Shown: positions 6,414 through 61,669 of the stretch, piece after piece
Numbering within the stretch: position 1 is the stretch's first letter
How the letters are laid out: every line of letters begins with the position of its first letter
From: an uncultured Acidobacteriota bacterium
GTDB taxonomy: Bacteria; Acidobacteriota; Thermoanaerobaculia; UBA5066
DNA length: 64,000 nucleotides
Direction of reading: 5' to 3'
NCBI GenBank assembly: GCA_963801475.1
Contig: CAWDEX010000001.1
Coordinates: 2,118,271 to 2,182,270 of the forward strand
Translations under genes and position numbers: made by a program
The notes under the pieces: model-generated
The model's database searches: none
What the model was told of the DNA's origin: nothing
Seen by the model: the letters and a program-made list of their open reading frames with translations, nothing else

Positions 6414-6480
6414 GACGCGACTATACGGCCGCCTCCCGCCCGGCGCCCCGACAGGCCCCGGGCGAAGTAAGATCCCGGGC

Positions 6481-19464: not shown

Positions 19465-19493
19465 TTGACCTTTCGAACCGGGCAGGTTAGAGT
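19465..19493 (+). promoter_or_regulatory. candidate sigma70-type promoter for rpsO (TTGACC-N17-TAGAGT)
   Basis: The -35 element TTGACC is at 19465-19470 and the -10 element TAGAGT at 19488-19493, with a 17-nt spacer. The pair lies about 40 nt upstream of the rpsO start. Confidence 0.5.
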
Positions 19494-19531: not shown

Positions 19532-19801
19532 TTGGCCCACCCCAGGACGAACAAGGCGGAAACGATCAAGTCGTACAAGCGGCACGAGGCCGACACCGGC
19601 TCCCCCGAGGTCCAGGTCGCTCTCCTCTCCCGGCGGATCACCGAGCTGACCGAGCACTTCAAGTCGCACGCGAAAGACCACCATTCGCGTCGGGGGCTGC
19701 TGCAGATGGTCGGCCGGCGGCGCCGGCTTCTCGACTACCTGAAGAAGCGCGACGTGGAGCGCTACCAGGTCCTGATCGAGTCGCTCGGGCTGCGCAAGTA
19801 G
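19532..19801 (+). CDS. rpsO: 30S ribosomal protein S15
   Basis: The protein is 89 aa and reads ...[50 protein letters not shown]. It apparently uses a TTG start. Confidence 0.93.
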
Positions 19802-19906: not shown

Positions 19907-22201
<2,295 letters not shown>

Positions 22202-23996: not shown

Positions 23997-24548
23997 TCAG
24001 AACTGGAAGCCGACAGAAACGGGGATGCTCCAGAGATCCGAGTCCTGCACCCTGAAGTAGACGACGTTGGCCTCGGCGAAGAACCAGCCCCGGGAGTAGC
24101 CGACGCCGGCGATGCCCGACAGCTTCGTGTCGGTCTGGGTCACCTTGAAGCCAGAACCCTCCACTTTCTGACGAAGAGCCCGGACACCAATCCCTGCGTT
24201 GGCGTACAGGCCTTCGGCGCCCTTCCCGGCCAGCCGGAAGGCGGCGCTCACATCGCCGCCGTAGAGGGCGCTGTTCCCGATGGTCGTTCCGAAGAAGTCT
24301 CCGTACTTGGAAGCGTTCTGGCCGTAACACGCCGCTGCGCGGACGCCCACGACGGACGAGCTCGGAAGCCAGAGGGCGCGGATCGTTCCGTGCCAGCCGG
24401 TCTCGTAGGCATCGGCGTAGTCACCGACCGTGAAGGTCGCCCCGCCCCCGACGCCGAGTTTGAAGTCCTCGGCCGGAGCCGGGCACGAGAGAACCAGGGC
24501 GAGCAGCATGCTGGATGCGAGCACGAAAGTCCTGACGGTCTTTTCCAT
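23997..24548 (-). CDS. outer-membrane beta-barrel protein (OmpW/OmpA-like porin family)
   Basis: There is a signal peptide (MEKTVRTFVLASSMLLALVLSCPAPA). The body has alternating amphipathic strands and the protein ends in a C-terminal Phe (..VGFQF). Confidence 0.65.
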   Translation of the reverse strand: MEKTVRTFVLASSMLLALVLSCPAPAEDFKLGVGGGATFTVGDYADAYETGWHGTIRALWLPSSSVVGVRAAACYGQNASKYGDFFGTTIGNSALYGGDVSAAFRLAGKGAEGLYANAGIGVRALRQKVEGSGFKVTQTDTKLSGIAGVGYSRGWFFAEANVVYFRVQDSDLWSIPVSVGFQF

Positions 24549-42347: not shown

Positions 42348-44423
42348 CTAGACCGAAACTTTCGCGATGATCCCGTCGGCGATCGCCTTCGGGACCTCGT
42401 CGTACTTCTCGAACTGCATCGTGTAGTTGGCCCGGCCCTGCGTCAGGGAGCGGAGCTGGGTCGCGTAGCCGAACATCTCCGACAGCGGGACCGAGGCATT
42501 GATGACCTGGAAGTTCAGGCGCGCCTCCATGTGGTTGATCTTTCCCCGCCGCGAGTTCAGGTCGCCGATCACGTCGCCCATGAACTCCTCGGGCGTGACG
42601 ACCTCGACGGCCATCATGGGCTCGAGAATGAAGGGGTCGGCCTTCTTCGCCGCGTCCTGGTAGGCCATCGATCCCGCGATCTTGAAGGCCATCTCCGAGG
42701 AGTCGACCTCGTGGAACGAGCCGTCGTACAGCTCAACTTGCAGCTTGACCGTCGGGTAGCCGGCGAGGACGCCGGTGGTCGTCGCCTCGCGGATGCCCTG
42801 CTCGATCGGCTTGATGAACTCCCGGGGGATCGTGCCGCCCGTGATCCCGTTGACGAACTCGAAGTCCTTCCCCTCCGGGTGCGGCCGCAGGTAGATCTTC
42901 GCGTGGCCGTACTGTCCCTTGCCGCCCGACTGCCGGATGAACCGGCCTTCGCCCTTTGTCTGCTTGCGGATCCCCTCGCGGTAGGCGACCTGGGGCTTGC
43001 CGACGTTGGCCCCGACGTTGAACTCGCGGACCATGCGGTCGACGATGATCTCGAGGTGCAGTTCGCCCATCCCGGCGATGATGGTCTGGTTCGTCTCCTT
43101 GTCCGTGTGGACGCGGAACGTCGGGTCCTCCTGCATGAGCTTGGCGAGCGCCATCCCCATCTTTTCCTGGTCGGCCTTCGTCTTCGGCTCGATGGAGAGC
43201 GTGATGACCGGCTCGGGGAACTTCATCGCCTCGAGGACGACGATGGAGTTCCGGTCGCAGATCGTGTCGCCCGTCGTGACGTTCTTCAGCCCGACGGCCG
43301 CCGCGATGTCGCCGGCCCAGACCTCCTTGATCTCCTCGCGCTTGTTCGCGTGCATCTTCAGGATCCTGCCGACGCGCTCGTTCGACTGCTTCGTCGAGTT
43401 GTAGACCCCCGAGCCGGCGTCGAGGTGCCCCGAGTAGACGCGGAAGAAGGCGAGCTGCCCCACGAAGGGGTCGGTCATGATCTTGAAGACGAGGCCGGCG
43501 AATGGCGCGTCGTCCTTCGTCTCGCGGATCAGCTCCTTGCCGTCCTCGTCGAGCCCGGTGATGGCCGGGATGTCGATCGGCGACGGAAGGTACTCGCAGA
43601 CGGCGTCGAGGAGCTGCTGCACGCCCTTGTTCTTGAAGGCCGAGCCGCAGACGACCGGGTGGAGCTTCCCGGAGACGGTGGCCTTCCGAAGGGCCGCGCG
43701 GATCTGCGCGGGCTCCGGCACGTGGCCCTCCATCCACTGGTGCATGATTCCGTCGTCGACTTCCGCGACCGACTCGACGAGCCGCTCGCGGTACTTGTCG
43801 AAGAGCGCCTTGTGGTCGGCCGGGACCTCCACCGTCTCGAACTCGGCGCCGAGGCTGTCATCCCGGAAGTCGTAGGCCTTCCCCTCGATGAGGTCGATGA
43901 CCCCCTCGAACGTTTCGGCCGAGCCCCACGGGACCTGGATCGGGGTCGGCTTCGCGGCCAGCTTCGTGACCATCATGTCGACGCACTTCTCGAAGTCCGC
44001 GCCGACGCGGTCCATCTTGTTGATGAAGGCGATACGGGGGACCCCGTAGCGGTCCGCCTGGCGCCAGACGGTCTCGGACTGCGGCTCGACGCCCGAAACG
44101 GCGTCGAACACGGCGACGGCGCCGTCGAGGACGCGGAGGGAGCGCTCCACCTCGGCCGTGAAGTCGACGTGGCCGGGGGTGTCGATGATGTTGATCCGGG
44201 TCCCCTGCCAGAAGCACGTCGTCGCGGCCGACGTGATCGTGATGCCGCGCTCCTGCTCCTGGACCATCCAGTCCATCGTCGCCGTCCCGTCATGGACCTC
44301 TCCGAGCTTGTAGTTCACGCCCGTGTAATAGAGGATCCGCTCGGTCGTCGTCGTCTTGCCCGCGTCGATGTGGGCCATGATGCCGATGTTCCGGCAGCTT
44401 TCGAGGGGATGAGTTCTCGGCAT
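42348..44423 (-). CDS. fusA: elongation factor G
   Basis: The protein begins [35 protein letters not shown]... The start was set at the internal ATG, 15 codons into the listed ORF. Confidence 0.95.
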
Positions 44424-44640
44424 GTCGAATGCGTCCCGTTCCGGGTCCGTCTGCGCCGTCGAACCCATCGGTCCTGCGTTTGGCTCGCTCCGCTCGCCAA
44501 ACGGTCCGGAGGTTTTCTCCCTCCGGCTTTCAGACCTGGGTTCCGCACGCTGAAAGGCGTGATCCGGGATCTTTCAAAGGACCTTTCCGGACCCTCAGGG
44601 CCGGCCGGTTTCCCTCCTCCCGGAGCGTCTCAGTGCAGGC

Positions 44641-45111
44641 TTACCAGCGGTAGTGGGCAAAGGCCTTGTTGGCCTCCGCCATCTTGTGGGTGTCCTCCTT
44701 CTTCTTGATGGCATTCCCGCGGTTGTTGGCCGCGTCGAGGAGTTCGCCGGCGAGCTTGTCGCGCATCGTCTTCTCGCCGCGCGCCTGGGAGTAGGAGATG
44801 AGCCAGCGGATCGCCAGGGAGGTGCGCCGGTTCGGCTTCACCTCGACCGGTACCTGGTAGGTCGAACCGCCGACGCGGCGGGACTTGACCTCGAGGACCG
44901 GCTTGACGTTCTCCACGGCCTTCTTGAACGTCTTGAGTGGGTCGTCCTGGGTCTTCTGCTCGATCTGCTTCATCGCGCCGTAGAAGATTCCCTCGGACAG
45001 GGACTTCTTCCCGCGCTCCATGACGCAGTTGATGAACTTCGTCACCAGCTGGGACTGGTAGACCGGATCCGGCAGGACTTCGCGCTTGGGGACTTCGCGG
45101 CGACGGGGCAT
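44641..45111 (-). CDS. rpsG: 30S ribosomal protein S7
   Basis: The protein begins [46 protein letters not shown]... and is 156 aa. The start was set at the internal ATG. Confidence 0.93.
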
Positions 45112-45122
45112 CTCGGTATCTC

Positions 45123-45497
45123 TTACGCCTTGGGCCGTTTCGCGCCGTACTTGCTGCGCGACTGCTTGCGGTTCGCCACGCCGACGGCGTCGAGGGTCCC
45201 GCGGATGATGTGATAGCGGACGCCCGGGAGGTCCTTCACGCGGCCGCCGCGGATCATGACGATCGAGTGCTCCTGGAGGTTGTGCCCGATCCCCGGAATG
45301 TAGGTCGTGACCTCGATGCCGTTCGTCAGGCGGACGCGGGCAATCTTCCGGAGAGCCGAGTTCGGCTTCTTCGGTGTCGTAGTTTTGACCTGGGTGCACA
45401 CCCCGCGGCGCTGCGGGCACGACTGCAGGGCCGGCGACTTCGTCTTGTAGCGGACGGGGTCGCGCCCCTTGCGGACGAGCTGGCTGATGGTCGGCAT
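45123..45497 (-). CDS. rpsL: 30S ribosomal protein S12
   Basis: The protein begins [51 protein letters not shown]... Confidence 0.96.
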
Positions 45498-45634
45498 CGG
45501 TCTTGAACGACTCCTTCAGGGACTCCGTTACGCGGCTCCCCGGGTTCTAACCCCAACTCCCAGAGCCGCTTGACGGCAATGGGCACGAGGCGAGCCGACA
45601 CAACGTATGCCCCGGCTCCCGGAGAAACCCGCGA

Positions 45635-45663
45635 AGGATACGGGGGGGGCAACGGTCTGTCAA
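45635..45663 (-). promoter_or_regulatory. candidate sigma70-type promoter for str operon (TTGACA-N17-TATCCT) upstream of rpsL
   Basis: On the minus strand the sequence reads TTGACAgaccgttgccccccccgTATCCT, placed 135-165 nt upstream of the rpsL ATG. Confidence 0.5.
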
Positions 45664-45690
45664 GCTCGATCTGGCCCCGAAGTCGTGGCT

Positions 45691-47643
45691 TCAGGTCCAG
45701 TGAATCGTCTCCCGGGACCCCTCGCGCCCTTCGCCGGCCGCCGGAGCCCCGGCCGCCGGGGCCACACGCCCCAGCTCCGGGTAGAGCTCCAGCACCCTGG
45801 CCACGACGCCGGGGGCGTCGACCTTATAGAGGGCGCGCTGGAGGCTCTGCGGGCTGTGATCGACGAAGGTATCCGAGACGCCGTGGGTCCGGACGCCGTC
45901 CGCCGGCAGCCCGGCCGCGTGGATCGCTTCCAGAACGCCGCTCCCGAAGCCCCCCATGAGGAGGTGCTCCTCAAGGGTCAGGAGACGCGGCGAGGCGGCG
46001 AGAAGGCCCCGGATCAGCTCGACGTCGAGGGGTTTGGCGAAACGCGCATGCGCCACCCCGCAGTCGATCCCCTGACCCCGGAGCGCCTCGGCCGCCTTCT
46101 GCGCGACGGGCACCATCGCGCCGTAGGCGAGGAGGTTGAGGTCCCGCCCCGACGAGAGGATTTCCCCCGTTCCGATCGGGATCTCCCGCCGCCGTTCGTC
46201 CAGCGGCAGGCCGAGACCGGCGCCCCGGGGGAACCGGATCGTGAAAGGGCGGCCCGAGGCCACCGCCGTATGGAGGAGGTGCTGCAGCTCGTTCTCGTCC
46301 TTCGGGGCGGCCACCGTCATGTTCGGGATGCCGCGCGTGAAGGCGATGTCGTAGATCCCCTGGTGCGTCTTCCCGTCGTCCCCGACGAAGCCGGCCCGGT
46401 CGACGCAGACGACGACCGGCAGGTTCTGGAGGCAGACGTCGTGGATGAGCTGGTCGTACGAGCGCTGGAGGAAGGTCGAGTAAATGGAGACGACCGGCTT
46501 CAGCCCCGCCTTCGCCATGCCGCCCGCCATGATGATGGCGTGCTCCTCGGCGATTCCGACGTCGTACACCCGGTCCGGGAACCGTTTCTTCACCTCGACG
46601 AGCGCCGTCCCCTCCAGCATCGCCGCACTGATGCCGACGATCTTCGGGTCCTCCTCCATCAGGGCGATCAGCGTCTTCGCGAAGACCTGCGAGTACGTGT
46701 AGGCCGCCCCCGAGCCGGCCGCGGGGGACGGCGTCCCCGGCTGGTGGAACCGGGTCGGATTGTCCTCGGCGCGCGTGTATCCCCGCCCCTTGTGCGTCAG
46801 CGCGTGGATGACGACCGGCGTGCCGTCCGCCGACACGTCCTTCGCCCGGCCGAAGGCCTCCTCCATCTCCGTGTAGTCGTGGCCGTCGATCGGGCCGATG
46901 TAGTGAAACCCGAGCTCGTCCCAGATCAGGTTCGGGAAGAAGAGCCCCTCGACCGAGGCCTTCATCTTCTTGGCGAGGCCCCAGGCTTCTTCACCCTTCG
47001 GAAGGCGGCGGAAGAACTTGTGCCCGGCCTCGATGAACTTCTGGTAGTTCGGGTGGAGCTCGAAGCGGTTGCGCCAGTGGGCCATCCAGCCGACGTTCTC
47101 CGAGATGGACCAGCCGTTGTCGTTCAGGACGACGATGAGGCGCTTCGGCTTGACGTGGACGATGTTGTTCATCGCCTCGTAGCTCGTCCCGCAGGTCAGT
47201 GCCCCGTCCCCGACGATGACCACCGTGTACGGCTTGCCCGGATCGTCCTGCGACGCCGCGGCCATCCCCATGCCGTAGGAGAGGCCGGTCCCGGCGTGCC
47301 CCGCGGCCAGCGTGTCGTGCTCGCTCTCGGACGGCTCCGCGAATCCCGAGAGGCCTCCCGGCATCCGGACGGTCGGGAAGCGGTCCCGGCGCCCCGTCAC
47401 GAGCTTGTGCGTGTAGCACTGGTTCGAGGTGTCCCAGACGAACTTGTCCCGGGGGCTCTCGAAGGCGCGGTGGAGCGCCAGCGTCAGCTCGACGACGCCG
47501 AGGTTCGACGCGAGGTGTCCGCCAGTCTTCGTGATCGTCTCGATGATGAGGTTCCGGCAGTCCTGTGCGACCTGCGCCAGCTCGTCGTGGCTCAGGGCCT
47601 TCAGGTCCTGCGGCCCCTCGATGCGGCTCAGAATGTTCATCAA
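45691..47643 (-). CDS. dxs: 1-deoxy-D-xylulose-5-phosphate synthase
   Basis: The 650-aa protein has the TPP-binding motif (GDGALTCGTSYEAMNN) plus transketolase-like pyrimidine-binding and C-terminal domains. The N-terminus reads MMNILSRIEGPQDLKALSHDEL... Confidence 0.93.
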   Translation of the reverse strand: MMNILSRIEGPQDLKALSHDELAQVAQDCRNLIIETITKTGGHLASNLGVVELTLALHRAFESPRDKFVWDTSNQCYTHKLVTGRRDRFPTVRMPGGLSGFAEPSESEHDTLAAGHAGTGLSYGMGMAAASQDDPGKPYTVVIVGDGALTCGTSYEAMNNIVHVKPKRLIVVLNDNGWSISENVGWMAHWRNRFELHPNYQKFIEAGHKFFRRLPKGEEAWGLAKKMKASVEGLFFPNLIWDELGFHYIGPIDGHDYTEMEEAFGRAKDVSADGTPVVIHALTHKGRGYTRAEDNPTRFHQPGTPSPAAGSGAAYTYSQVFAKTLIALMEEDPKIVGISAAMLEGTALVEVKKRFPDRVYDVGIAEEHAIIMAGGMAKAGLKPVVSIYSTFLQRSYDQLIHDVCLQNLPVVVCVDRAGFVGDDGKTHQGIYDIAFTRGIPNMTVAAPKDENELQHLLHTAVASGRPFTIRFPRGAGLGLPLDERRREIPIGTGEILSSGRDLNLLAYGAMVPVAQKAAEALRGQGIDCGVAHARFAKPLDVELIRGLLAASPRLLTLEEHLLMGGFGSGVLEAIHAAGLPADGVRTHGVSDTFVDHSPQSLQRALYKVDAPGVVARVLELYPELGRVAPAAGAPAAGEGREGSRETIHWT

Positions 47644-47735
47644 AGCGTCCTTAGCTCCCGCGGCGGACGCGGGAGCCGCGAATCATACTCCAGCAAAGCG
47701 GGTCTTCGAGGCCGCCGCCAGGGCCTTCGGGCGCC

Positions 47736-48638
47736 TCAGCGCGCCGGAACGGCCGGCGTGCCCCGGTCGAGGGCGTGCTTCAGCCGGCGAGTGATCAGGA
47801 AGAGCTCCGGACGCGAGACTTTCGCGCCGGGCCCCTTCTCCTCGACCTTCCCGAGCGTCGCGCGGGCGAGGAGCACGGGGAGGGCGCAGAACTCCACGAG
47901 GCCGCGCGGAGCGCCCGCCCCCTGAAGGATGCCGATGTACTCCGCCGCCACGCCGAGATCCTGGCGGGCGAGGGCGAACACCTCGGACACCGGAACGGAC
48001 GCGGGGAGGTACCGCCGCCCCTCCGCCGCATCGTCCGCCGCGTCCTTCAGGATGTTCACGAGCTGCAGCGCTTCGCCGAACGCCGCCGCGCGGGACCGGA
48101 GCGCCCCGGCGGAGGAGTCAAGGTGCGGGCGGGCGAGGAGGAAGAGCTCGGTCAGCATCTCGCCGACGATGCCGGCCACGAAGTAGCAGTAGCGCCGGAG
48201 CTCCGGAAGGCCCGGCAGGGCGAGACGACCGTCGTGCGTTGCCGCCACGTACTCCCCCATGCCGTCCGACGACCGGATGACGTGCTCGCGGATGGACGCC
48301 ACGGCCTCGGGCGAAAGCGAAAAGAAGGCGCTGAGGACGAAGGGCACTTCGGCGATCAGCTCGCGGTACCCCTCGTGCTCCGCCGGCCGCGCAGCACTCC
48401 ACGCCGCAGCGAGGCGGGCGGACTCGGCCGAATCGTTCTCGCGGAGAAGTCGCTCGAAGTCCGAAAGGGCCTCGATCCGGCGCTCGACCGGCCAGTGGGA
48501 CGCGTCCTCGAACGTGTCGGCGATCCGGAAAAGGAGGTAGGCGATCATCACCTCGCGACGCGTCGGCTCCGGAAGGACCGGTATCGAGAGCGCGAACGTG
48601 CGGCTCGTCTTCCCGAGAAGGCCTTCGAGAGTCGGCAC
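47736..48638 (-). CDS. squalene/phytoene synthase family protein (HpnC/HpnD-like)
   Basis: The 300-aa protein has an isoprenoid synthase class-1 fold with Asp-rich regions (LFRIADTFED, YCYFVAGIVGEMLTELF, NILKDAADDAAEGRRYLP). It sits in a hopanoid gene context. Confidence 0.75.
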   Translation of the reverse strand: MPTLEGLLGKTSRTFALSIPVLPEPTRREVMIAYLLFRIADTFEDASHWPVERRIEALSDFERLLRENDSAESARLAAAWSAARPAEHEGYRELIAEVPFVLSAFFSLSPEAVASIREHVIRSSDGMGEYVAATHDGRLALPGLPELRRYCYFVAGIVGEMLTELFLLARPHLDSSAGALRSRAAAFGEALQLVNILKDAADDAAEGRRYLPASVPVSEVFALARQDLGVAAEYIGILQGAGAPRGLVEFCALPVLLARATLGKVEEKGPGAKVSRPELFLITRRLKHALDRGTPAVPAR

Positions 48639-48640
48639 GC

Positions 48641-49447
48641 TCAGATCTTCTCCGGAAGGAGCCGCTCAAGGAAGTGGCCGAGCGTCCCCGCCCCCTCCCG
48701 GACCCGCCGGCGTACCCGGAGGAGCTTCGGGAGCGCCGAGGGGCGCCGGACCAGCCGGCGCGCGACGGCCGCACGGTTGATCGAGCCGTCCCTCGAGAGA
48801 CAGAGCGCGAGAAACCCCGGGAGCTCCTCCTCGAAGGAGTCCGAAACGGCGCGAAGAATCGCATAGGGTATGCCGTGCTTCGCCGCGGCGCGTGCCCATG
48901 CCGCCGACTCCATGTCGACGACCGCGGCGACGCCCGGATCGACGCCGAAGCGAAGCGCAACCTCGCTCCTCTCCCTTGAATTACAGGCCGGTCTCGCCCA
49001 CGTCACGAACGTCGCCGGCTTCGCTCCGAGGACGACGGCCCGGGAGAGCCATCCGGCGTCGGGAGGAGGGGCATCGCCCTGCTCGTCGACGACGCGCGAG
49101 GCGACGACGATTTCTCCCGCGCCGAGGGACGACACGAGCGCCCCGGCCGCGCCGACGCCGATAAGGAGGGAGACTGCGGATTCCCCCAGAAGGAGAGTCG
49201 CCCCGCGCTCGGCCCGCATTCCGCCGTCGCCGGTCATCGCGAGAAGGACGGGCACGCCGGAGAGTCTTCCTCGGAGAAGAAACCTCCGTTCGCCCTTGCG
49301 TGCGCGGCCGTGCATCGGGTCGGCGACGCATTTTTCGATCGCGTGGAATTCCTCCCGGATCGCCGTCACGATGGCGGTGAGCCCCGCGCGGGCCGCCGGC
49401 GGGTGCGACGGGTGCTTCATCCCGCCCCCCGGCTCAGGCGCGAACAT
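48641..49447 (-). CDS. hpnG: hopanoid-associated phosphorylase/nucleosidase HpnG (PNP/UDP family)
   Basis: The protein has the purine nucleoside phosphorylase/MTA nucleosidase fold (..VDMESAAWARAAAKHGIPYAILRAVSD..). It is embedded between hpnA and the squalene-synthase-family gene. Confidence 0.7.
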   Translation of the reverse strand: MFAPEPGGGMKHPSHPPAARAGLTAIVTAIREEFHAIEKCVADPMHGRARKGERRFLLRGRLSGVPVLLAMTGDGGMRAERGATLLLGESAVSLLIGVGAAGALVSSLGAGEIVVASRVVDEQGDAPPPDAGWLSRAVVLGAKPATFVTWARPACNSRERSEVALRFGVDPGVAAVVDMESAAWARAAAKHGIPYAILRAVSDSFEEELPGFLALCLSRDGSINRAAVARRLVRRPSALPKLLRVRRRVREGAGTLGHFLERLLPEKI

Positions 49448-50453
49448 GGCCGTTCTCCCGAAACCAGGTGACGGCGCGCCCGAGGGCGCCCTCGACCGGG
49501 CTCTGCGGGAGCCCCAGCTCGCGCACGGCCTTCGACGCGTCGAAGAACATCCGGTGCCGCGACATTCGGACGCTCTCGAGGCTGACGCGTGGCGGGCGCC
49601 CGAGGAGCCCGGCGACGAACGTGTCGACGGCGGCGACCGCCAGGGGGACGGCGTGCGGCAGGCGGACCCGCGGCGCGGAGAGGCCGGTGATCCGGGAGAG
49701 CGCTTCGAGGATCTCCTTCAGGGTCATGTTCCGGTGTCCGAGGATGTACTTCTCCCCCGTCCGCCCCTTCTCGGCTGCGAGTAGGTGCCCCGCGGCCACG
49801 TCGTGAACGTCGACGAGGTTCAGGCCCGTGTCGACGTAGGCCGGGAGCCTCCCGTTCAGGAAGTCGACGACGAGCTGTCCGGTCGGCGTCGGCTTCACGT
49901 CGAGCTCGCCGACCGGCGTGGACGGGTTCACGATGACGACGGGGAGTCCGCGGGCCGCCCACGCCTCGGCGACCCGCTCGGCGTCGTACTTGCTCTTCTT
50001 GTAGTGGCCGACGACCTCCTCACGGGCGACGGGCGTCGTCTCGTCGGCCGGCGAACCGTCCGGCCGCAGCCCCAGCGCCCCGACGGAGCTCGTGTAGACC
50101 ACGCGCGAGACGCCGGCCTCCCCGGCGGCCGCCAGGACATTCTCCGTACCGCCGACGTTCGCCCGGAAGAGCTCGCCGGGGTCCTTCGTCCAGAGCCGGT
50201 AGTCCGCCGCCACGTGGTAGAGCGTCGATACGCCGCGAACCGCGCGCCCGAGGGAGGCCCGGTCGGCGAGGTCTCCCTCGGCGATCTCCACGGGAAGGCC
50301 TTCCAGATTCGCGCGCCGGCTCGACGGGCGGACGAGGCAGCGGACCGGTTCCCTCCGCGCCAGGAGGGCCCTCACCACGTGGGCGCCGACGAATCCTGTC
50401 CCGCCCGTGACCAGATTCAAGGTCTCACCCGTCTGCTCAAGCGAGGGGGGCAC
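49434..50453 (-). CDS. hpnA: hopanoid-associated NAD-dependent sugar epimerase/dehydratase HpnA
   Basis: The protein has a Rossmann fold with the motifs GGTGFVGAHVVRAL and YKKSKYDAE (YxxxK). It lies next to hpnH and hpnG. Confidence 0.7.
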   Translation of the reverse strand: MPPSLEQTGETLNLVTGGTGFVGAHVVRALLARREPVRCLVRPSSRRANLEGLPVEIAEGDLADRASLGRAVRGVSTLYHVAADYRLWTKDPGELFRANVGGTENVLAAAGEAGVSRVVYTSSVGALGLRPDGSPADETTPVAREEVVGHYKKSKYDAERVAEAWAARGLPVVIVNPSTPVGELDVKPTPTGQLVVDFLNGRLPAYVDTGLNLVDVHDVAAGHLLAAEKGRTGEKYILGHRNMTLKEILEALSRITGLSAPRVRLPHAVPLAVAAVDTFVAGLLGRPPRVSLESVRMSRHRMFFDASKAVRELGLPQSPVEGALGRAVTWFRENGHVRA

Positions 50454-50510
50454 GGAGGGTGCGACCCCGGCTTCGCGACCTGCCCCGAGGGACTTCGCAC
50501 CCCCCGAGTA

Positions 50511-51518
50511 TCACGCCACCAGGTCGAGGTTCCAGGCGATGAGCCGGACCATGTCGCCCGGGCTCTTCGGGAGCTCCTTCACGACCGAGGCCTCGAATCC
50601 CGAGTGCATGAGGCAGTTCGCGCAGAGGGGGTCCTTCCGCGACTCCCAGTAAGCCCAGTCGGTCCCGTTCCAGAACTCCTCGTACGTCTCCGACCAGGTC
50701 TTGCCGATGAGATAGCAGGGGCCCTTCCACCCCTTCGGGGTGTAGGTCACGGTGCTCCAGGGAGAGCACTTGTACTCCCGGAGCCCCGCCGCGAACTCGA
50801 GGAACATCGGCGTGGAGGTGAGCCGGTAGGACTTCGAGATCTCGAGGATCCGCCGGAACTTCCGGTGGATCTCGGACTTGGTCAGGAAGATCTGGGCGCC
50901 CACCGACTCGTAGTGATAGCCCGGCGAGACGAGCATCCCCTCGACGCCGAGGTCCGTCAGGAACCGGCAGAGCTCCTCGACCTCCTCGACGCTCGTCTCC
51001 TTGAAGACCGTCGTGTTCGCCATGACGTGGTGGCCGAGCTTCACGCCTTCCCGGATCATGGCGACGGCCTTGTCGAACGTTCCCTCCTTGGCGCAGACGT
51101 AGTCGTGCGTCTCCCGCATCCCGTCGAGGTGAACGTTGATCATCAGCCGCTTGTGCGGCGGGAGGACGCCGTAGACGGTCTCGTCCAGGAGGAGCCCGTT
51201 CGTGCAGAGGTAGATGTGGCGCTTCCGCTCGATGATGCCGGAGACGAGCTCGGAGAGCTCCGGGTAGAGCGTCGGCTCGCCCCCGCAGATGGAGACGACC
51301 GGCGCCCGGGAGACGTCGACCGCCTCGAGGCATTTCTTGAGCGGAAGGCGGTCCTTCAGCTTTCCCGTGTGGCGCTCCACCGCGCAGCCGAGGCAGGCGA
51401 GATTGCAGGTATAGAGCGGCTCCAGCATCAGGACGAACGGGTACCGCTTCTTCCCCCGGACGGCGTTCCGCACCTGGTGCGAGATCGTGTCCGTCATGAT
51501 GTGGGCCGGGAATCTCAT
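50511..51518 (-). CDS. hpnH: adenosylhopane synthase HpnH (radical SAM)
   Basis: The protein has the motif YPFVLMLEPLYTCNLACLGCAV (CxxxCxxC) and a conserved C-terminal Cys cluster (CSPW...GPCYL...CANCLMH). It sits immediately downstream of shc. Confidence 0.85.
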   Translation of the reverse strand: MRFPAHIMTDTISHQVRNAVRGKKRYPFVLMLEPLYTCNLACLGCAVERHTGKLKDRLPLKKCLEAVDVSRAPVVSICGGEPTLYPELSELVSGIIERKRHIYLCTNGLLLDETVYGVLPPHKRLMINVHLDGMRETHDYVCAKEGTFDKAVAMIREGVKLGHHVMANTTVFKETSVEEVEELCRFLTDLGVEGMLVSPGYHYESVGAQIFLTKSEIHRKFRRILEISKSYRLTSTPMFLEFAAGLREYKCSPWSTVTYTPKGWKGPCYLIGKTWSETYEEFWNGTDWAYWESRKDPLCANCLMHSGFEASVVKELPKSPGDMVRLIAWNLDLVA

Positions 51519-51522
51519 CGCG

Positions 51523-53583
51523 TCAGTCCCTTTTCTTCGCGGCCGCGCGCCTCACGCCGGCGAATCCGCCCGCCCGGGACCCCGCCGTCCCTTCGACGCG
51601 CCCGTAGAGCGACAGCGCCCAGAGGGGGAAGTAGGTCGCGTAGAGATGGTAACGAAGGTAGAAGACCTTCGGAAAGCCCGTCCCGGTCCAGTGAGCGTCC
51701 CGCCACGAACCGTCGTACTGCTGCTCCCGGAGAAGGTACGCCACGCCGCGCTCGACGCTTTCGGAGCGGTCCTCCCCGAGCGTGAAGAGCGCCATCAGCG
51801 CCCAGGCCGTCTGGGCGGCCGTCGAGGGGCCGCGGCCCTTCGTGGACGGATCGTCGTACGAGCGCGGCAGCTCGCCCCACCCGCCGTCGGCGTTCTGGTG
51901 GGCGCGCAGCCACGCGGCGGCCCGCTGGTAGCGCGGCTGATCCAGGTCCTCCCCCGCGTGCGCGAGGCCCCGGAGGACGAGCCACGTCCCGTAAATGTAG
52001 TTGACGCCCCACCGCCCGTACCACGTGCCGTCCCGCTCCTGCTTCTCCTTCAGGAAGGAGACGGCGGCGCGCACCGCCGGGTGGGACGGCGGGACGCCGA
52101 GGTTGTGGAGCGCCTCGAGCGCCCGGCCGCTGATGTCCTCGCAGCTCGGGTCCAGCATCGCGTTGTGGTCGGCGAAGGGGATGTAGGTCAGGACCTCGAG
52201 GTCACACCCCTTGTCGAAGGCTCCCCAGCCGCCGTCCCGGTTCTGCATCGACAGGAGCCAGCCCAGCCCCCGCTCGATGGCCTCGACGCGGCGCGCTTCC
52301 TCCGGCGCCTCGGCGAACCGGACGCGGGAGAGCGCCGTCAAGACCTCGGCCGTGTCGTCCGTGTCGGGATAGAACTCGTTGGCGTACTCGAAGTACCAGC
52401 CGCCGACCGGCCCGTCGGGGTTCGCCTTCTTCCAGTCGCCCGGGAGGCGGATCTCCCGGTCGAGGAGCCAGCGGGCCGCGAGGCGAAGAGAGGCGTCGTC
52501 GGCCGGCGCGCCCGATTCCGACAAGGCGACGGCGGCGATGGCCGTGTCCCAGACCGGTGAGAAGCAGGGCTGCACCCGGAGCGTGTCGTCGTCCTCGATC
52601 TCGAACCGCTCGAGCTCGTGCACCTGGGCGAGAAGCCGCGGGTCGTCCAGGCCGTATCCGAGGCAGCGGAAGGCGAAGATCGTGTTGACGATCGGCGGAA
52701 AGATCGCACCGAGCCCGTCGCTCCGGACGAGCCGGTCGTGAATCCAGGTTTCGCAGCCGGCGAGCGCCCTCTTCCGGAAGGGCTTCAGGCCGGCCGCCTC
52801 GAGCCCCCGAAGGACCACGTCGGCGGTCGTGAAGATCCCGCGCCAGAACCGCTCGCGGGGAGTCCGCCTCCGCTCCGGGTGGAAGTGAGGGACGTGAAGC
52901 TCCGGGATCTCCGCGTGGGCCGGCACCGGACAGAACGGCTTGGTGGCCCAGATGACCGAGAGAGGTACCACGATCGTCCGGGACCATGACGACATCCGGT
53001 AGATGTTGAACGGGATCCAGTCGGGCAGGAGGACCAGTTCCGGAGGTACGGCCGGGCAGCGGCTCCAGTCACACTGGCCGAAGATGGCCAGATAGATCTT
53101 GGTGAAGGAGTTGCACGCCTCCACGCCGCCCATCCGGCGGATCACTTCGCGCGCCTTCGACATGTGCGGCGCGTCCGGCGCATCGCCTACGAGCTTCAGG
53201 ACGAAGTACGCTTTCACCGACGTCGAGACGTCGGCCGGACCCCCCGGGTAGTTCGGCCAGCCCCCCTCGGGGAGCTGCTGCCGGCGGAGGTACTCCGCGG
53301 CTTTCTTTACCCGGGCTTCCCCGGTCCGACCGAGGAAGTGCATCGTCAGGACGTACTCGGACTCCAGGATCGTGTCGCCTTCCAGCTCCGCGCACCAGTG
53401 CCCGTCAGGGTACTGGATCGAAAGGAGATAGCGGCGAGCGGCAGCGACCGAGAAGCGGACCCGGTCGGCCGTCGGCTCTCCCCTGGATACACCCGGAGCG
53501 GCCTGCGGATCGCTCATAGACGGGCGGATCGTAAGGGACCTCACAGAATCGCGCAAGTCGGGACCTCCATCCTGAGACTCCAT
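51523..53583 (-). CDS. shc: squalene-hopene cyclase
   Basis: The 686-aa protein has multiple QW repeats, the catalytic motif DDTAEV (DxDDTA), and the motifs GGWGAFD and GRWGVNYIYGT. Confidence 0.93.
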   Translation of the reverse strand: MESQDGGPDLRDSVRSLTIRPSMSDPQAAPGVSRGEPTADRVRFSVAAARRYLLSIQYPDGHWCAELEGDTILESEYVLTMHFLGRTGEARVKKAAEYLRRQQLPEGGWPNYPGGPADVSTSVKAYFVLKLVGDAPDAPHMSKAREVIRRMGGVEACNSFTKIYLAIFGQCDWSRCPAVPPELVLLPDWIPFNIYRMSSWSRTIVVPLSVIWATKPFCPVPAHAEIPELHVPHFHPERRRTPRERFWRGIFTTADVVLRGLEAAGLKPFRKRALAGCETWIHDRLVRSDGLGAIFPPIVNTIFAFRCLGYGLDDPRLLAQVHELERFEIEDDDTLRVQPCFSPVWDTAIAAVALSESGAPADDASLRLAARWLLDREIRLPGDWKKANPDGPVGGWYFEYANEFYPDTDDTAEVLTALSRVRFAEAPEEARRVEAIERGLGWLLSMQNRDGGWGAFDKGCDLEVLTYIPFADHNAMLDPSCEDISGRALEALHNLGVPPSHPAVRAAVSFLKEKQERDGTWYGRWGVNYIYGTWLVLRGLAHAGEDLDQPRYQRAAAWLRAHQNADGGWGELPRSYDDPSTKGRGPSTAAQTAWALMALFTLGEDRSESVERGVAYLLREQQYDGSWRDAHWTGTGFPKVFYLRYHLYATYFPLWALSLYGRVEGTAGSRAGGFAGVRRAAAKKRD

Positions 53584-53625
53584 CGCACGAGGGAGGCCCG
53601 CCTGTGCGCCTGCGGGACACCCGGT

Positions 53626-54948
53626 TCAGCGTCCCGGCGACGGCGTCAGGGCGAGGACGGCGATCTCGCCGCGGAGAGAGAGGAGGGTGAGGCGTGCTCC
53701 GGCCAGCGCCTCGGCGGCCCGGGAGACGGCGTCCTCGGCGTCGGCGGCCTCCAGCTCGGCCCGGGGGACGCCGTCCGGTTCCCCGCGCCCCTCGCGGGCC
53801 TGCGCCTCGGCGACGCGAACGGCCTCCCGGGCGACGGCGAGCCCCTGTCGGGCCAGCTCCAGCTCGCGCCGGGCGAGATCCGCCTCGGCCGAAGCCGCCC
53901 GTGCGGCGCGCGCCACGTCGTTCTCCCGCGCCCGGCGCTGCTCGTTCACGCGCCCTTCCTTCGCGCGGGCCTGAGCCGCATGCGCCGTGTCGAGCCCCCC
54001 CGTGAGGACGGGGATGACGACGGAGACGCCGGCGCTGGCGGTGTTCGTGTCGACCTTCAGGTAGTACTTGTCGTAGTTGTAGTAGGGCGGAACGTAGAGG
54101 TAGCGCGCCTCGGCGACGACCTGCGGGCGGAACCAGCGGTCCGCGAGGTTCGCGGCGCGGGCGGTCGCATCTGCCTCCTCCCCGAGCGCCCGAAGCTCCG
54201 GATCGGAGGCGAGGGCCGCGGAGACGGGGTCGACGGCCGCCGCGTCCGGCAGCGCCTGAAGCGGGTCCTCCGCGAGGAGCAGACCGGCCCCCTCCGGAAG
54301 GCCGGTGGCGGCCCGGAGATCGACGGCTGCGAGTGTGCGCTCGGTCTCGGCGACGACGAGACCGTGCCGCGCCCGCGCGAGGCCGAGGCCCGAACGGCCG
54401 ACCTCGAGGCTCGTCGCCCGCCCCTCGCGGCCGAGCGCCTCGGTCCGTGCATGGAGCGTCTCGCGAGCCGCCACCCGCCGGCGCGCGCTCGCCACCCGCC
54501 GCTCCGCCGCGTGGAGGCGGGCGTAGGCGAGCGCGGTCCGGCGGATCGTCTCCCGCCGGACCGACTCGAGCCGTCCCGCGGACCCGGCGGAGCGGCCCCG
54601 GGCGAGCGCCTCGTCTTCCTTCAGCGCCGGATCCCAGAGCATCAGGCGAAGCCGGGCGCCCGCCGCCGCGGGAGGCTCGCCCGCGACGGTGAGGGGAAGC
54701 CCCGAGGTCACGCCCGGGGTCGACGTCAGAAAGAACTGGGGCCTGAAGGCGCTCCGCGCCATCTTCACGCCTTCCGACGCCTCCTCGGCCGCGCTCCCGG
54801 CCGCGAGGAGCGCCGGTTCCCGGGCGAGGGCCCGTTCGACGGCGCCCCGGAGGGTCAGCGGCACGGCAGCGTCCTCCGCCGCCGCGGGCGCAGCGGTCAG
54901 GAGGAGAGCGAGGAGCGCCGCCCCGGTGGCGGTCCGTCCGTCATTCAT
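53626..54948 (-). CDS. TolC-family outer membrane efflux protein
   Basis: There is a signal peptide followed by two repeats of the coiled-coil/beta-barrel outer membrane efflux protein architecture. It is co-oriented with and overlaps the permease gene. Confidence 0.8.
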   Translation of the reverse strand: MNDGRTATGAALLALLLTAAPAAAEDAAVPLTLRGAVERALAREPALLAAGSAAEEASEGVKMARSAFRPQFFLTSTPGVTSGLPLTVAGEPPAAAGARLRLMLWDPALKEDEALARGRSAGSAGRLESVRRETIRRTALAYARLHAAERRVASARRRVAARETLHARTEALGREGRATSLEVGRSGLGLARARHGLVVAETERTLAAVDLRAATGLPEGAGLLLAEDPLQALPDAAAVDPVSAALASDPELRALGEEADATARAANLADRWFRPQVVAEARYLYVPPYYNYDKYYLKVDTNTASAGVSVVIPVLTGGLDTAHAAQARAKEGRVNEQRRARENDVARAARAASAEADLARRELELARQGLAVAREAVRVAEAQAREGRGEPDGVPRAELEAADAEDAVSRAAEALAGARLTLLSLRGEIAVLALTPSPGR

Positions 54949-56146
54949 GACGCAGCGCCTCCACGGGGTTCAGGCCGGCGGCACGCATCGCCGGGAAGAC
55001 CCCGAAGACGATCGTGACGCCGCTGGAGAAAAGGAACGCGAGGACACCCGACAGGGCCGAGACCCGGATCGTGACGCCCGTGACGAGAAGGCGCACCGCG
55101 AGGGGCAGGCCGAGCCCGAATAGGACGCCGATGAGCGACCCGATCGACCCGAGAAGGAACGCCTCGAGGAGGAACTGCCGCAGGATGTCGCGGCGCCGCG
55201 CCCCGAGGGACTTCCTGAGCCCGATCTCCCGCGTCCGCTGCTCCACGGAGGCGAGGAGGATGTTCATGATGCCGACGCCGCCCACGACGACGGAAACGGC
55301 CGCCGCGGCGACGAAGACGAGGATCAGGCCCGAGGAGATCGCCTCGGCCACCTTGATGACCGTCGTCATGCTCTCCACCTTGAAGACCGCCCCCTGCCGG
55401 TGGCGCTCGCGGAGGAGCGACTCCATGGCCGCGACCCCTTCGGGGATCAGCGGAAACTCACGGACCTCCGCGAAGAGCGTGTCAACCCGCCGAATCGGCG
55501 TGAAGAACCACCCCACCGTGATCGGGACGAAGATGGTCCGCGGAATCACCTCGCCCCGCCCCATCGTGTCGACCGGCTTGTCGAAGACGCCGACGATGCG
55601 GAAGGTCATCCCGAGGGTCCGGAGCGTCTTCTCCCCGATCGGCTCCGTCCCGAAGAGCTCCTCGTAGAGCGGCCGGTTGACGACGCAGACCTTCGCCCGC
55701 TGGAGGATGTCCTCTTCGTCGAGGAAGCGTCCGTCGACGATTCGCACGTTGCGGCGGACGGCCGTGTAGTTGGGCGTCGTGCCGACGATCCGGAGCGTGG
55801 CGGTCGTCGAGAGCGTCGCCACCGTCGCCTGAAGCTCCACGATCGGCGTCACGCCCCGGAAGAGGTCCGTTCGGGCCGCGAGGGCCTTCGCGTCTCCCTC
55901 GGTGATCTGGTCGTCGCGCAGGCGCGACACGCCCGAGGTGACGGTCCCCTGGTAGGTCGCCCAGACGAGATGCGAGCCGACCCCCTCGATCTGCTCCATG
56001 ACGAAACCGCGCCCCGTGAGGCCGAGCGAGACGATCAGGATGATCGCGGCCGTCCCGACGATGAGCCCGGCGAGCGTCAGCCAGGTCTGGATGGGGTGCG
56101 TCCGGAACCGGTTCAGCGCGGTCTCGAGGACCTCGCGGAAGACCAT
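54941..56146 (-). CDS. ABC-type efflux permease, FtsX/MacB/LolC-like (no fused ATPase)
   Basis: The protein has an N-terminal TM helix, a roughly 200-aa periplasmic domain, and a C-terminal FtsX three-TM bundle (..SVEQRTREIGLRKSLGARRRDILRQFLLEA..). The start was set at the internal ATG at 56146. Confidence 0.8.
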   Translation of the reverse strand: MVFREVLETALNRFRTHPIQTWLTLAGLIVGTAAIILIVSLGLTGRGFVMEQIEGVGSHLVWATYQGTVTSGVSRLRDDQITEGDAKALAARTDLFRGVTPIVELQATVATLSTTATLRIVGTTPNYTAVRRNVRIVDGRFLDEEDILQRAKVCVVNRPLYEELFGTEPIGEKTLRTLGMTFRIVGVFDKPVDTMGRGEVIPRTIFVPITVGWFFTPIRRVDTLFAEVREFPLIPEGVAAMESLLRERHRQGAVFKVESMTTVIKVAEAISSGLILVFVAAAAVSVVVGGVGIMNILLASVEQRTREIGLRKSLGARRRDILRQFLLEAFLLGSIGSLIGVLFGLGLPLAVRLLVTGVTIRVSALSGVLAFLFSSGVTIVFGVFPAMRAAGLNPVEALRHE

Positions 56147-56148
56147 CT

Positions 56149-57336
56149 TCAGCCCCCGCGGACGAGGACGCGGACGCCGTCGGCGACGGGCGTCGTGCCC
56201 GGCAGGAGGACCACGTCTCCCTCGGCCAGCCCCGAGGTCACCTCTACGGCCGTCAGCCCCAGGAGGCCGACGGCGATGTCCCTGCGTCGCGCCCGGCCGT
56301 CCACGGGGACGAAGACGAAACGTTTCTCGCCGTCCCGCTGAAGGGCGGCCCGGGGGACGACGAGCACCCCCTTCTTCTCGCCCGACACGATCTCCACGTT
56401 GACGGAGGCGTTCGGCGGAAGCTCGTCGGACGCCCCCCGGATCTCGCCGAGGACGTCGGACACCTCGCGCCCGCCGACCTCGCGCAGGCCCGGGGAGACG
56501 CGCGCGATCGTTCCTTCCCAGGTCTTGTCCGGGAGGCCGTCGAACGTGACGCGCATCCGCTGTCCCGGGGCGATCCGGGGAAGGTCCGGCTGGTCGACGC
56601 GCGCCCGGACGCTCCGGACGACCGGGTCCGCCACGCCCGCCACGATCTGTCCGGGCACCACGATCTCCCCCGTCTTCCGCGGGAGCCCGTAGACCATGCC
56701 GTCGCGCGGCGCCACGACGGTGAGCGCCGCCACGCGCTCCTCGAGGTCGCGCGCGGAGGCCCGCACCAGCTCCAGCCGCGACGTGCCGCCGTTCGCGGTC
56801 CCGTCCAGCGAGGCGAGCCGTGCCTCGGCGCTCCGAAGCCGCTCCTCCGCGTCGCGGAAGGCGGCCTCGCCCGCCTCCCACGCGGACTTCGTGATCGCCT
56901 TCTCGGACAGGAGCCGCGTGTCGGCTTCGAAGGTCCGCTTCTTCTCCGCCACCTCGCGCCGCGCACGCTCGGCCTCGCCGGTCGCCTGGATCCTCTCGGC
57001 CGCGAGGCGGAGGGCCTCGGCCCGGGCTTCGCGCGCCTTCTCCGAGACGGCGGGGCTCTCCAGACGGACGAGCGTCTCCCCCTTCCGGACCCGGTCGCCG
57101 TCATGGACGAGGACGGCGGCCACCGTCGCGGCGTCGAGGGCCCGCAGCTCGCCCCCGGGGAGCGGCTCGAGCGTCCCGTCGCAGAGGATCGGCACGACGA
57201 GGTCCGCCCGCGCCGCTTTCGCTGACGGGACGGAGGGCGGCCTCGGCCGCCAGAGCCCCGCCGCGAGAAGGAGGACGACGAGAATTCCGGCCGCGGCCGC
57301 GAGCCAGCGGAAGGGATGCGAAGGGCCGTTCGCCAC
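56149..57336 (-). CDS. periplasmic adaptor (membrane fusion protein, HlyD/MacA family)
   Basis: The protein has an N-terminal TM anchor, a long coiled-coil (..AEALRLAAERIQATGEAERARREVAEKKRTFEADTR..), and beta-barrel plus lipoyl domains. It uses a GTG start. Confidence 0.8.
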   Translation of the reverse strand: MANGPSHPFRWLAAAAGILVVLLLAAGLWRPRPPSVPSAKAARADLVVPILCDGTLEPLPGGELRALDAATVAAVLVHDGDRVRKGETLVRLESPAVSEKAREARAEALRLAAERIQATGEAERARREVAEKKRTFEADTRLLSEKAITKSAWEAGEAAFRDAEERLRSAEARLASLDGTANGGTSRLELVRASARDLEERVAALTVVAPRDGMVYGLPRKTGEIVVPGQIVAGVADPVVRSVRARVDQPDLPRIAPGQRMRVTFDGLPDKTWEGTIARVSPGLREVGGREVSDVLGEIRGASDELPPNASVNVEIVSGEKKGVLVVPRAALQRDGEKRFVFVPVDGRARRRDIAVGLLGLTAVEVTSGLAEGDVVLLPGTTPVADGVRVLVRGG

Positions 57337-57362
57337 GAAGCGATGTTACGGGAAAAGGACGC

Positions 57363-57385
57363 CGGGCCGGCTTTCGCCGGCCCGG
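57363..57385 (-). terminator. candidate intrinsic terminator after rpoC (second of two hairpins)
   Basis: On the minus strand the sequence reads CCGGGCCGGC-gaaa-GCCGGCCCGG followed by CGUCCUUUUCCCG. A second perfect 9-bp hairpin (GGGGGAACC..GGTTCCCCC) lies at 57407-57431. Confidence 0.45.
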
Positions 57386-57445
57386 GGAGCAGCGATTGGC
57401 TCGGAGGGGGCTTGGGGGAACCGGCCATGGTTCCCCCAGGGCACT

Positions 57446-61669
<4,224 letters not shown>

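Follow-up and report, generated by a model that had tools for sequence, protein, structure and literature searches.

Comparison of the locus with described hopanoid gene clusters

Gene clusters that join shc, hpnH, hpnG, hpnA, genes of the methylerythritol phosphate (MEP) pathway and a transporter are already well known. In subdivision 1 and 3 Acidobacteria, the hopanoid genes form shc-hpnH-ispH and hpnG-hpnA clusters, mostly with hpnCDE, and a few strains carry a gene resembling squalene synthase (SQS), termed 'fdfT' (Damste et al. 2017, PMC5462960). Thermoanaerobaculum aquaticum, the only cultured subdivision-23 strain, was found to lack all hopanoid genes and dxs (PMC5462960). A recent microsynteny study of the neighbourhoods of shc proposes hpnL, hpnM, hpnS and hpnT, with HpnM, HpnS and HpnT as hopanoid trafficking factors, and makes no mention of MacB or TolC (Lawrence et al., bioRxiv 10.1101/2025.07.29.667474). 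Here we describe a hopanoid gene cluster in an unexpected class. It lies in a 64-kb stretch of DNA from an uncultured Acidobacteriota bacterium (contig CAWDEX010000001.1; the whole stretch is called the window below), where nine minus-strand genes occupy positions 45691-57336 between rpoC and rpsL, on the same strand as rpoB/rpoC and rpsL-rpsG-fusA-tuf. By its protein sequences, the host is an uncultured soil/wetland member of the Thermoanaerobaculia (Acidobacteriota). Its S7 ribosomal protein shares 92-94% identity with that of metagenome-assembled genomes (MAGs) labelled Thermoanaerobaculia/Acidobacteriota, a look-up of S12 returned 100% identical S12 on six metagenome contigs, and exact-sequence look-ups of Shc and HpnH gave no match. 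Near-identical contigs are present in the JGI wetland/soil samples 3300037011 and 3300036761. In the literature, we found neither a prior description of hopanoid genes in Thermoanaerobaculia nor a prior report of hopanoid genes tied to a MacB/TolC module.

The locus resembles the hpn clusters described in Proteobacteria and in Acidobacteria of subdivisions 1 and 3 in that shc, hpnH and hpnA are grouped with an hpnG-type gene, MEP genes stand alongside (dxs here, and also ispH in the related contigs L173 and L174), and a transporter module adjoins. It differs from them in five respects: squalene would be supplied by a single short SQS-type gene rather than by hpnC-hpnD-hpnE; the HpnG-like protein is divergent and falls under the curated cut-off; hpnN, hpnI/J/K, hpnO and hpnP/R are absent from the cluster; the adjacent transporter module is tripartite and of the MacB type, not of the resistance-nodulation-division (RND) type; and the host belongs to the Thermoanaerobaculia, whose only cultured member has been reported to be without such genes. 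It is likely that the locus represents a native envelope-lipid gene cluster, conserved in one uncultured Thermoanaerobaculia lineage and set between the terminator of rpoBC and the str promoter.

A preliminary description of this DNA had reported nine genes at 45691-57336, and this observation is confirmed; the interpretation of the locus given there is partly supported. The coordinates of the open reading frames (ORFs) bear out that the genes are co-directional, tightly packed and truly situated between rpoC and rpsL. The gaps reported between the TolC-like channel gene and shc (42 nt), between hpnH and hpnA (57 nt) and between the SQS-like gene and dxs (92-95 nt) were recovered as well. The small junctions had been described as overlaps of 4-8 nt, which holds for the 8-nt overlap of the permease and channel genes; the others are really gaps of 2 nt (adaptor/permease), 4 nt (shc/hpnH) and 2 nt (hpnG/SQS) and an overlap of 14 nt (hpnA/hpnG), so that the series comprises 2-4-nt gaps and 8-14-nt overlaps. 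The outer spacers measure 109 nt between rpoC and the adaptor gene and 193 nt between dxs and rpsL.

Identity of the hopanoid genes and dxs

We compared bit scores with the curated cut-offs of the NCBIfam/TIGR families and also searched Pfam. Squalene-hopene cyclase, encoded by shc at 51523-53583 (minus strand, as are all nine genes), scored 713.8 bits with TIGR01507 against a cut-off of 431.1 and is full length, with both SQHop_cyclase_N and SQHop_cyclase_C recognised by Pfam. HpnH, the radical-SAM adenosylhopane synthase (50511-51518), reached 362.1 bits with TIGR03470 (cut-off 225), matched the Pfam families Radical_SAM and DUF3463, and shows the CxxxCxxC motif in its translation as CNLACLGC. 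The hopanoid-associated NAD-dependent epimerase/dehydratase-family protein HpnA (49434-50453) scored 485.6 bits with TIGR03466 (cut-off 367.65), and 1-deoxy-D-xylulose-5-phosphate synthase, Dxs (45691-47640 from an ATG, or to 47643 with a TTG start), scored 690.6 bits with TIGR00204 (cut-off 465.95). Thus, the earlier assignments of Shc, HpnH, HpnA and Dxs were upheld by the hidden Markov models, whereas HpnG stayed below its cut-off and the gene labelled 'hpnC/D' proved to be neither HpnC nor HpnD. The true start of hpnA may lie ~11 codons further downstream, since HpnA of the relatives has 328 aa.

The HpnG-like nucleosidase/phosphorylase of the PNP_UDP_1 superfamily is encoded at 48641-49447. 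Its best NCBIfam family is HpnG (TIGR03468), with 106.2 bits against a cut-off of 187.1; five orthologs from relatives gave 85-116 bits, again with HpnG as the best family each time, and Pfam confirmed the PNP_UDP_1 fold family. This is the fastest-evolving gene of the cluster, with 68% identity in L167, a JGI metagenome contig, compared with 83-94% for the other cluster proteins. The gene is placed between hpnA and the SQS-like gene in L002, L167, L170, L173, L174 and L175, and its fixed position and 14-nt overlap with hpnA lend support to an HpnG role. The protein is also weakly similar to futalosine hydrolase. A separate gene of the window, at 6522-7943 on the plus strand, encodes a radical-SAM protein with a CofH/MqnC C-terminal domain, hinting at futalosine-route menaquinone synthesis.

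A compact protein of the squalene synthase type

The gene at 47736-48638 encodes a 300-aa protein of the SQS_PSY family (126.8 bits in Pfam), here called SQS-like. Its best NCBIfam model is TIGR01559, with 99.1 bits against a curated cut-off of 286.75, which it does not reach. The HpnD model (TIGR03465) gave 55 bits against 279 and the HpnC model (TIGR03464) ~43 bits against 250, with only residues 142-214 aligned. We rejected an identity with HpnC or HpnD on these scores, which lie far below the cut-offs, extend over ~70 residues and are exceeded by the score with TIGR01559. By profile and predicted fold, the protein is instead of the one-enzyme squalene synthase type.

It belongs to a family of short proteins (~300 aa) comprising 247 clusters at 50% identity with E<1e-30, whose close members in Thermoanaerobaculia/Acidobacteriota MAGs are annotated as 'farnesyl-diphosphate farnesyltransferase' or 'squalene/phytoene synthase family protein'. 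TIGR01559 was the model that all 48 family members searched matched and the one with the lowest best E-value, yet none of them (0/48) scored above its cut-off. A profile of these 48 members matched squalene synthases of the PDB with E ~1e-35 over positions 4-269, compared with only 1e-17 over a central stretch for CrtM and phytoene synthase. The AlphaFold2 model of the protein has a predicted local-distance difference test (pLDDT) score of 97.6; its top 42 fold matches in the PDB are all squalene synthases, with template-modelling (TM) scores of 0.67-0.78, and the match to CrtM is lower (TM 0.57-0.62). The segments DTFED, NILKDAADD (Asp-rich), YCYFVAGIVGEML (the YCxxVAG segment) and EFCALP align to human and fungal SQS, and the fold, both Asp-rich motifs and the segments YCxxVAG and FCAIP expected of a one-enzyme SQS are all present.

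Compared with the eukaryote-type enzyme (Sqs/FDFT1; TIGR01559; PDB 1EZF, 3WCA, 7WGH), the protein shares the fold over its full length and the DTFED, DAADD, YCxxVAG and FCA(I/L)P motifs. It differs in being only ~24-25% identical to the solved SQS structures, in having 300 aa without a C-terminal anchor, in scoring far under the curated cut-off, and in belonging to a family of its own, some members of which stand in carotenoid-like contexts. From the family profile, the motif alignment and the predicted-fold matches, we infer that the SQS-like gene encodes a compact one-step squalene synthase.

In two further contigs (L176, 8001-12045; L177, 5952-9640), a family member 48% identical to the one described here is followed by two amine-oxidase (CrtN/HpnE-like) genes and, further on, by a glycosyltransferase gene. 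Such a context points to a C30-carotenoid-like pathway as the destination for part of the family.

An ATPase-less MacB-type module upstream of shc

The three genes upstream of shc encode a periplasmic membrane-fusion adaptor of the HlyD/MacA type (MFP; 56149-57336, GTG start), an ATPase-less MacB-type inner-membrane permease (54941-56146) and a TolC-like outer-membrane channel (53626-54948). The adaptor scored 126 bits with TIGR01730 (RND_mfp; cut-off 94.9) and matched HlyD_D23 and HlyD_3 in Pfam. The permease matched the Pfam families MacB_PCD (98.8 bits) and FtsX (68.9 bits) and aligns to MacB residues 254-648, that is, to the permease half only. The channel matched Pfam OEP with 112 bits in two repeats, and TIGR01844 with 75 bits, which is under the cut-off. 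The module thus resembles a MacAB-TolC pump: consecutive genes encode, in this order and with near-zero spacing, the adaptor, a permease of the MacB fold with its periplasmic core domain and FtsX four-helix bundle, and a channel of the TolC family. Unlike MacB, the permease has no ATPase fused to its N-terminus. Neither the LSGGQ signature of ABC ATPases nor an ATPase gene was found in the window or in 11 related loci, and the ATPase for the tripartite module must be encoded elsewhere. The permease is also distinct from the acidobacterial 'ADOP' orphan permeases (TIGR03434), which are duplicated whereas this one is single.

Viewed from the hopanoid side, six of the seven hopanoid clusters of the clade that were recovered through other genes have the module directly 5' of shc, co-directional with it and 13-107 nt away (L001, L002, L167, L170, L174 and L175; L173 is without it). 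A metagenome scan from the permease side gave a different proportion. Orthologs 61-67% identical to the permease precede shc in two of six informative contigs (L087 and L094, which are more distant, with Shc 60% identical), and in the other four (L089-L092) they precede unrelated genes. Permease paralogs at ~35% identity never adjoin shc. We asked whether the shc-linked and unlinked orthologs form separate clades and rejected this, because they are interleaved in a neighbour-joining tree. Like HpnN (RND) and HpnM/HpnS/HpnT, the module would be an envelope-spanning transport module adjoining shc in a diderm; it differs from them in protein family (MacB compared with RND, Mla-like or lipocalin) and in its incomplete linkage to shc.

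Boundaries of the cluster

The upstream flank of the cluster is rpoC (57446-61669, minus strand), a 1407-aa ORF whose product is 91-95% identical to that of L010 and L167, with rpoB beyond it (from 61685, past 63892, minus strand). Downstream of rpoC on the minus strand, the region 57362-57438 contains two GC-rich hairpins, at 57413-57438 and 57362-57385, followed by CGTCCTTTTCC. A terminator scan flagged 57385-57362, with 10 G-C pairs, and the RNA of the spacer between rpoC and the adaptor gene folds with -51.2 kcal/mol (z = -3.84). The second hairpin is kept in L167 and also in L010, where another gene comes next, and it is therefore assigned to rpoC.

On the other side, rpsL (45123-45497, minus strand) is followed by rpsG (44641-45111, minus strand) and then by fusA and tuf. 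A promoter of the sigma-70 type, TTGACA-17-TATCCT, lies at 45635-45663 (minus strand) in front of rpsL and is the only such match in 44400-58000. This promoter and the first ~45 nt of the leader are kept 163-206 nt 5' of rpsL in 12 relatives, with dxs, a decarboxylase gene, a radical-SAM gene or the SQS-like gene upstream. The leader itself extends over ~131 nt (45498-45628, minus strand); its start is near-invariant (GGTTTCyCCGGG..CCGG..CGTCGTGTCGGC), and its ribosome-binding-site region is also kept, in 10 distinct relatives. Neither the whole window nor the leader matched any Rfam family, and the fold of the leader alignment had no covariation support; we therefore do not claim a structured RNA leader. 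Only one other consensus sigma-70-type site occurs in the whole window, at 19465-19493 on the plus strand, just 5' of rpsO (19532-19801), with pnp (19907-22201) after it.

The cluster had been viewed as embedded in the flanking operons. With the rpoC terminator hairpin conserved upstream and the rpsL promoter and leader conserved downstream, it instead appears to sit between two transcription units. A 14-nt motif, TTCCCGTAACATCG (57341-57354, minus strand), lies 4 nt before the GTG of the adaptor gene and has no second copy in the window. L167 (1390-1403) and L170 (1313-1326) have it unchanged and L175 (about 1448-1461) has it with one mismatch, although the upstream gene differs among these loci (rpoC, a mechanosensitive-channel-like gene and an OEP gene). 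The motif, which moves along with the cluster, could be a promoter -10 element, mark a leaderless start or serve as a regulator site. The cluster might accordingly be transcribed by read-through of the rpoC terminator or from a non-consensus promoter near TTCCCGTAACATCG.

Within the cluster, the spacer between the SQS-like gene and dxs contains, by our reading of the sequence, a 9-bp GC hairpin, GCTCCCGCG-tccgc-CGCGGGAGC (47654-47676, minus strand), just 5' of the ribosome-binding site of dxs. An opposite-strand gene of ~300 aa without a Pfam match fills the same spacer in L170 and L174.

Gene order in related genomes

Contig L167 carries the identical order, rpoC-adaptor-permease-channel-shc-hpnH-hpnA-hpnG-SQS-dxs-rpsL, and its proteins along this stretch are 84-95% identical, HpnG (68%) excepted. 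An assembly artefact was rejected on the strength of this independent contig, which has the same junctions. In L001, L002 and L175, the cluster lies 5' of rpsL with an opposite-strand pyridoxal-phosphate (PLP)-decarboxylase gene between dxs and rpsL, and in L175 a further OEP gene, not rpoC, precedes that of the adaptor. The nine genes and rpsL are kept in L170, with a mechanosensitive-channel-like gene and an amino-acid permease gene upstream instead of rpoC. The hopanoid genes are also kept in L174 (with the efflux module) and L173 (without it), which have neither rpoC nor rpsL within 10 kb. Relatives farther off thus retain the cluster without its rpoC neighbour, its rpsL neighbour or both. 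In L010, whose S7 is 92% identical, rpoC is followed (4816-6458) by an opposite-strand PIN/FitA-like toxin-antitoxin pair, a small secreted protein and then only the SQS-like gene before rpsL; the toxin-antitoxin pair is unrecognised by NCBIfam and was identified by Pfam as PIN plus a FitA-like ribbon-helix-helix protein. L008 and L009 have the SQS-like gene next to rpsL without dxs, and L011 and L012 (S7 78-79% identical) have neither rpoC nor the SQS-like gene upstream of rpsL.

In five contigs (L003-L007), seven additional genes lie between dxs and rpsL. In L003 (3176-9838), they encode an HpnL-like flippase-domain protein (TIGR03476, 110 bits, under cut-off), a haloacid dehalogenase (HAD) phosphatase, a nucleotidyltransferase, an unknown protein, a CDP-alcohol phosphatidyltransferase (DIPP/PIP synthase-like), a myo-inositol-1-phosphate synthase and a radical-SAM protein. 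The block is also found in L004-L007 and, in part, in L173, in L174 and upstream of the adaptor gene of L089; it is not in the window. Its gene content suggests a pathway for inositol phospholipids or headgroups appended to the hopanoid cluster.

In other Acidobacteriota (L014, L019 and L058), rpoC abuts rpsL with gaps of 85-239 nt, which argues that the rpoC-cluster-rpsL arrangement is derived. The preliminary description had placed rpsL directly after rpoC, or a few genes further on, in most bacteria; in our survey, adjacency of the two was not near-universal. Among 67 informative species representatives recovered with S7, the end of rpoC lies at most 600 nt from rpsL in 32, the gap is 0.7-8 kb in 11, and no rpoC is present within at least 5 kb in 24. 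Nor is the arrangement a recent oddity: the preliminary description itself held that it would not be notable if shared by close relatives, and the close relative L167 has exactly the same layout, with L001, L002, L170 and L175 keeping the cluster by rpsL. Read from gene order, the placement is derived, lineage-specific, common to close relatives and located at a frequently broken junction. The spacer between rpoC and rpsL is a variable site in this lineage, holding the hopanoid cluster, the inositol-lipid-like block, the toxin-antitoxin pair or the synthase gene only.

Base composition

The G+C content of the window is ~69% throughout. The G+C content at third codon positions (GC3) is 0.83-0.96 in the nine cluster genes and 0.84-0.96 in eleven ordinary genes of the window, and the pooled codon-usage distance between cluster and ordinary genes (0.038) is smaller than that between ordinary genes and translation/RNA polymerase genes (0.052). 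GC3 and codon usage of the cluster are thus those of ordinary window genes, and these native values give no pointer to a recent insertion. At the cluster edges, no gene for an integrase, a transposase or a tRNA was seen; boundary repeats were not searched for. Recent horizontal transfer was rejected on GC3, codon usage and conservation in relatives. Elsewhere in the window, a gene at 22220-23932 (minus strand) encodes a 570-aa predicted membrane protein without a Pfam match and adjoins the gene for a small outer-membrane beta-barrel protein (23997-24548).

Discussion

With the pathway steps assigned from family membership, the cluster could encode a short route from isoprenoid precursors to extended hopanoids. 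Dxs would feed the MEP pathway, the compact one-enzyme squalene synthase would couple a pair of farnesyl diphosphate molecules to form squalene, and Shc would cyclise squalene to diploptene or diplopterol. HpnH would then add adenosine to give adenosylhopane, the HpnG-like nucleosidase would remove adenine to give ribosylhopane, and HpnA may help to turn ribosylhopane into bacteriohopanetetrol. The tripartite envelope module upstream, with its adaptor, its MacB-type permease and its TolC-like channel, usually travels with these hopanoid genes. The position between rpoC and rpsL probably results from a rearrangement within the lineage at an often-broken junction and not from a recent insertion.

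Several points weigh against this model of a native cluster with its own boundaries. The functions of all cluster genes are predicted through homology, and both the HpnG-like and the SQS-like proteins stay below their curated cut-offs. The product of the SQS-like family need not always be squalene for hopanoids, because the 48%-identical member adjoins amine-oxidase genes in place of shc. Gene content was read from the 64-kb window, and hpnCDE, hpnN or an ATPase partner elsewhere in the genome lie outside that scope. No consensus sigma-70 promoter was found inside 45691-57336, the GTG of the adaptor gene is only ~16 nt past the T-tract of the terminator, and co-transcription with rpoBC is possible. 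The last points bear on the reading, in line with the earlier proposal of one or two transcripts embedded in this highly expressed locus, that the cluster is expressed mainly by read-through from rpoBC, which would couple hopanoid and efflux expression to growth-rate-controlled transcription. The genes are indeed on the same strand as rpoC, the short distance is too small for the cluster to have a promoter of its own downstream of the hairpin, and the T-tract (CCTTTTCC) is weak, so that termination may be leaky. However, two strong GC hairpins follow rpoC, of which the second is kept even before a different gene; in L170 and L175, TTCCCGTAACATCG stays with the cluster behind a gene other than rpoC, which suggests that the cluster has a control element of its own; and L174 and L173 carry the same cluster far from rpoBC. 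We consider predominant read-through a real but somewhat unlikely alternative. That the block is a genomic island recently acquired in the rpoC-rpsL spacer by horizontal transfer can hardly be maintained. In its favour are the adjacency of rpoC and rpsL in L014, L019 and L058, the variable content of the spacer among relatives, including the toxin-antitoxin pair of L010, and the lack of hopanoid genes in cultured T. aquaticum (PMC5462960), but the G+C content, GC3 and codon usage are indistinguishable from those of ordinary window genes, the edges show no integrase, transposase or tRNA gene, the cluster proteins diverge roughly in step with flanking genes among relatives, and the cluster is present at several loci over a broad clade.

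The roles of individual genes allow further alternatives. The module might be a functional part of the hopanoid system that exports hopanoids, or a lipid containing them, to the outer membrane, in the role that HpnN (RND) has in Proteobacteria. Its position upstream of shc in 6/7 clade clusters speaks for this, as do the survival of the linkage when the chromosomal location changes (L170 and L174), its recurrence in the distant L087 and L094 while the ~35% paralogs are unlinked, the absence of hpnN from the cluster and the lack of an earlier literature report of the association. Yet in the unbiased sample equally close permease orthologs precede unrelated genes in 4/6 contigs, the interleaving of linked and unlinked orthologs in the tree weakens the idea, L173 has hopanoid genes without the module, and no ATPase partner accompanies it in the loci surveyed. 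Clustering of envelope genes without a common substrate is also frequent, and to our knowledge MacB-type pumps handle peptides, macrolides and lipoproteins, not triterpenoids, which likewise counts against hopanoid export. We therefore regard such an export role as rather improbable. The SQS_PSY gene, for its part, might encode an incomplete synthase that yields presqualene diphosphate or dehydrosqualene, with squalene coming from HpnC/HpnE-like genes elsewhere. The low TIGR01559 score (99 compared with 287 bits), a length ~40 residues below that of characterised squalene synthases and the two genes after the 48%-identical relative, from the amine-oxidase family that includes HpnE and CrtN, would fit this. 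Against it, squalene synthase is clearly a closer match in profile and predicted fold than CrtM or phytoene synthase, the scores for HpnC and HpnD are even lower, and this is the sole SQS_PSY gene of a cluster whose next enzyme needs squalene. Moreover, FCA(I/L)P aligns with the stretch of human SQS holding F288, a residue linked to the second, reductive step, and the fold matches include the F288A and F288L mutants of human SQS in the PDB, with presqualene diphosphate according to the entry titles. An incomplete synthase thus seems quite unlikely. The broadest claim, that the ATPase-less MacA/MacB/TolC-like module is an unrecognised hopanoid export route replacing HpnN and that, together with it, the SQS-like family is a new class of one-step squalene synthases, is improbable.

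The preferred reading of a native envelope-lipid cluster does not overturn current understanding. What is mildly new is the presence of hopanoid genes in a class whose only cultured member has none, and an orphan MacB-type module that accompanies 6/7 clade clusters. A MacB-type module linked to hopanoid genes and a compact squalene synthase family without a curated model are now testable candidates. The cluster extends predicted hopanoid production to uncultured soil/wetland Thermoanaerobaculia, and this bears on which organisms get credit for the hopanoid (sqhC) signals detected in the environment.

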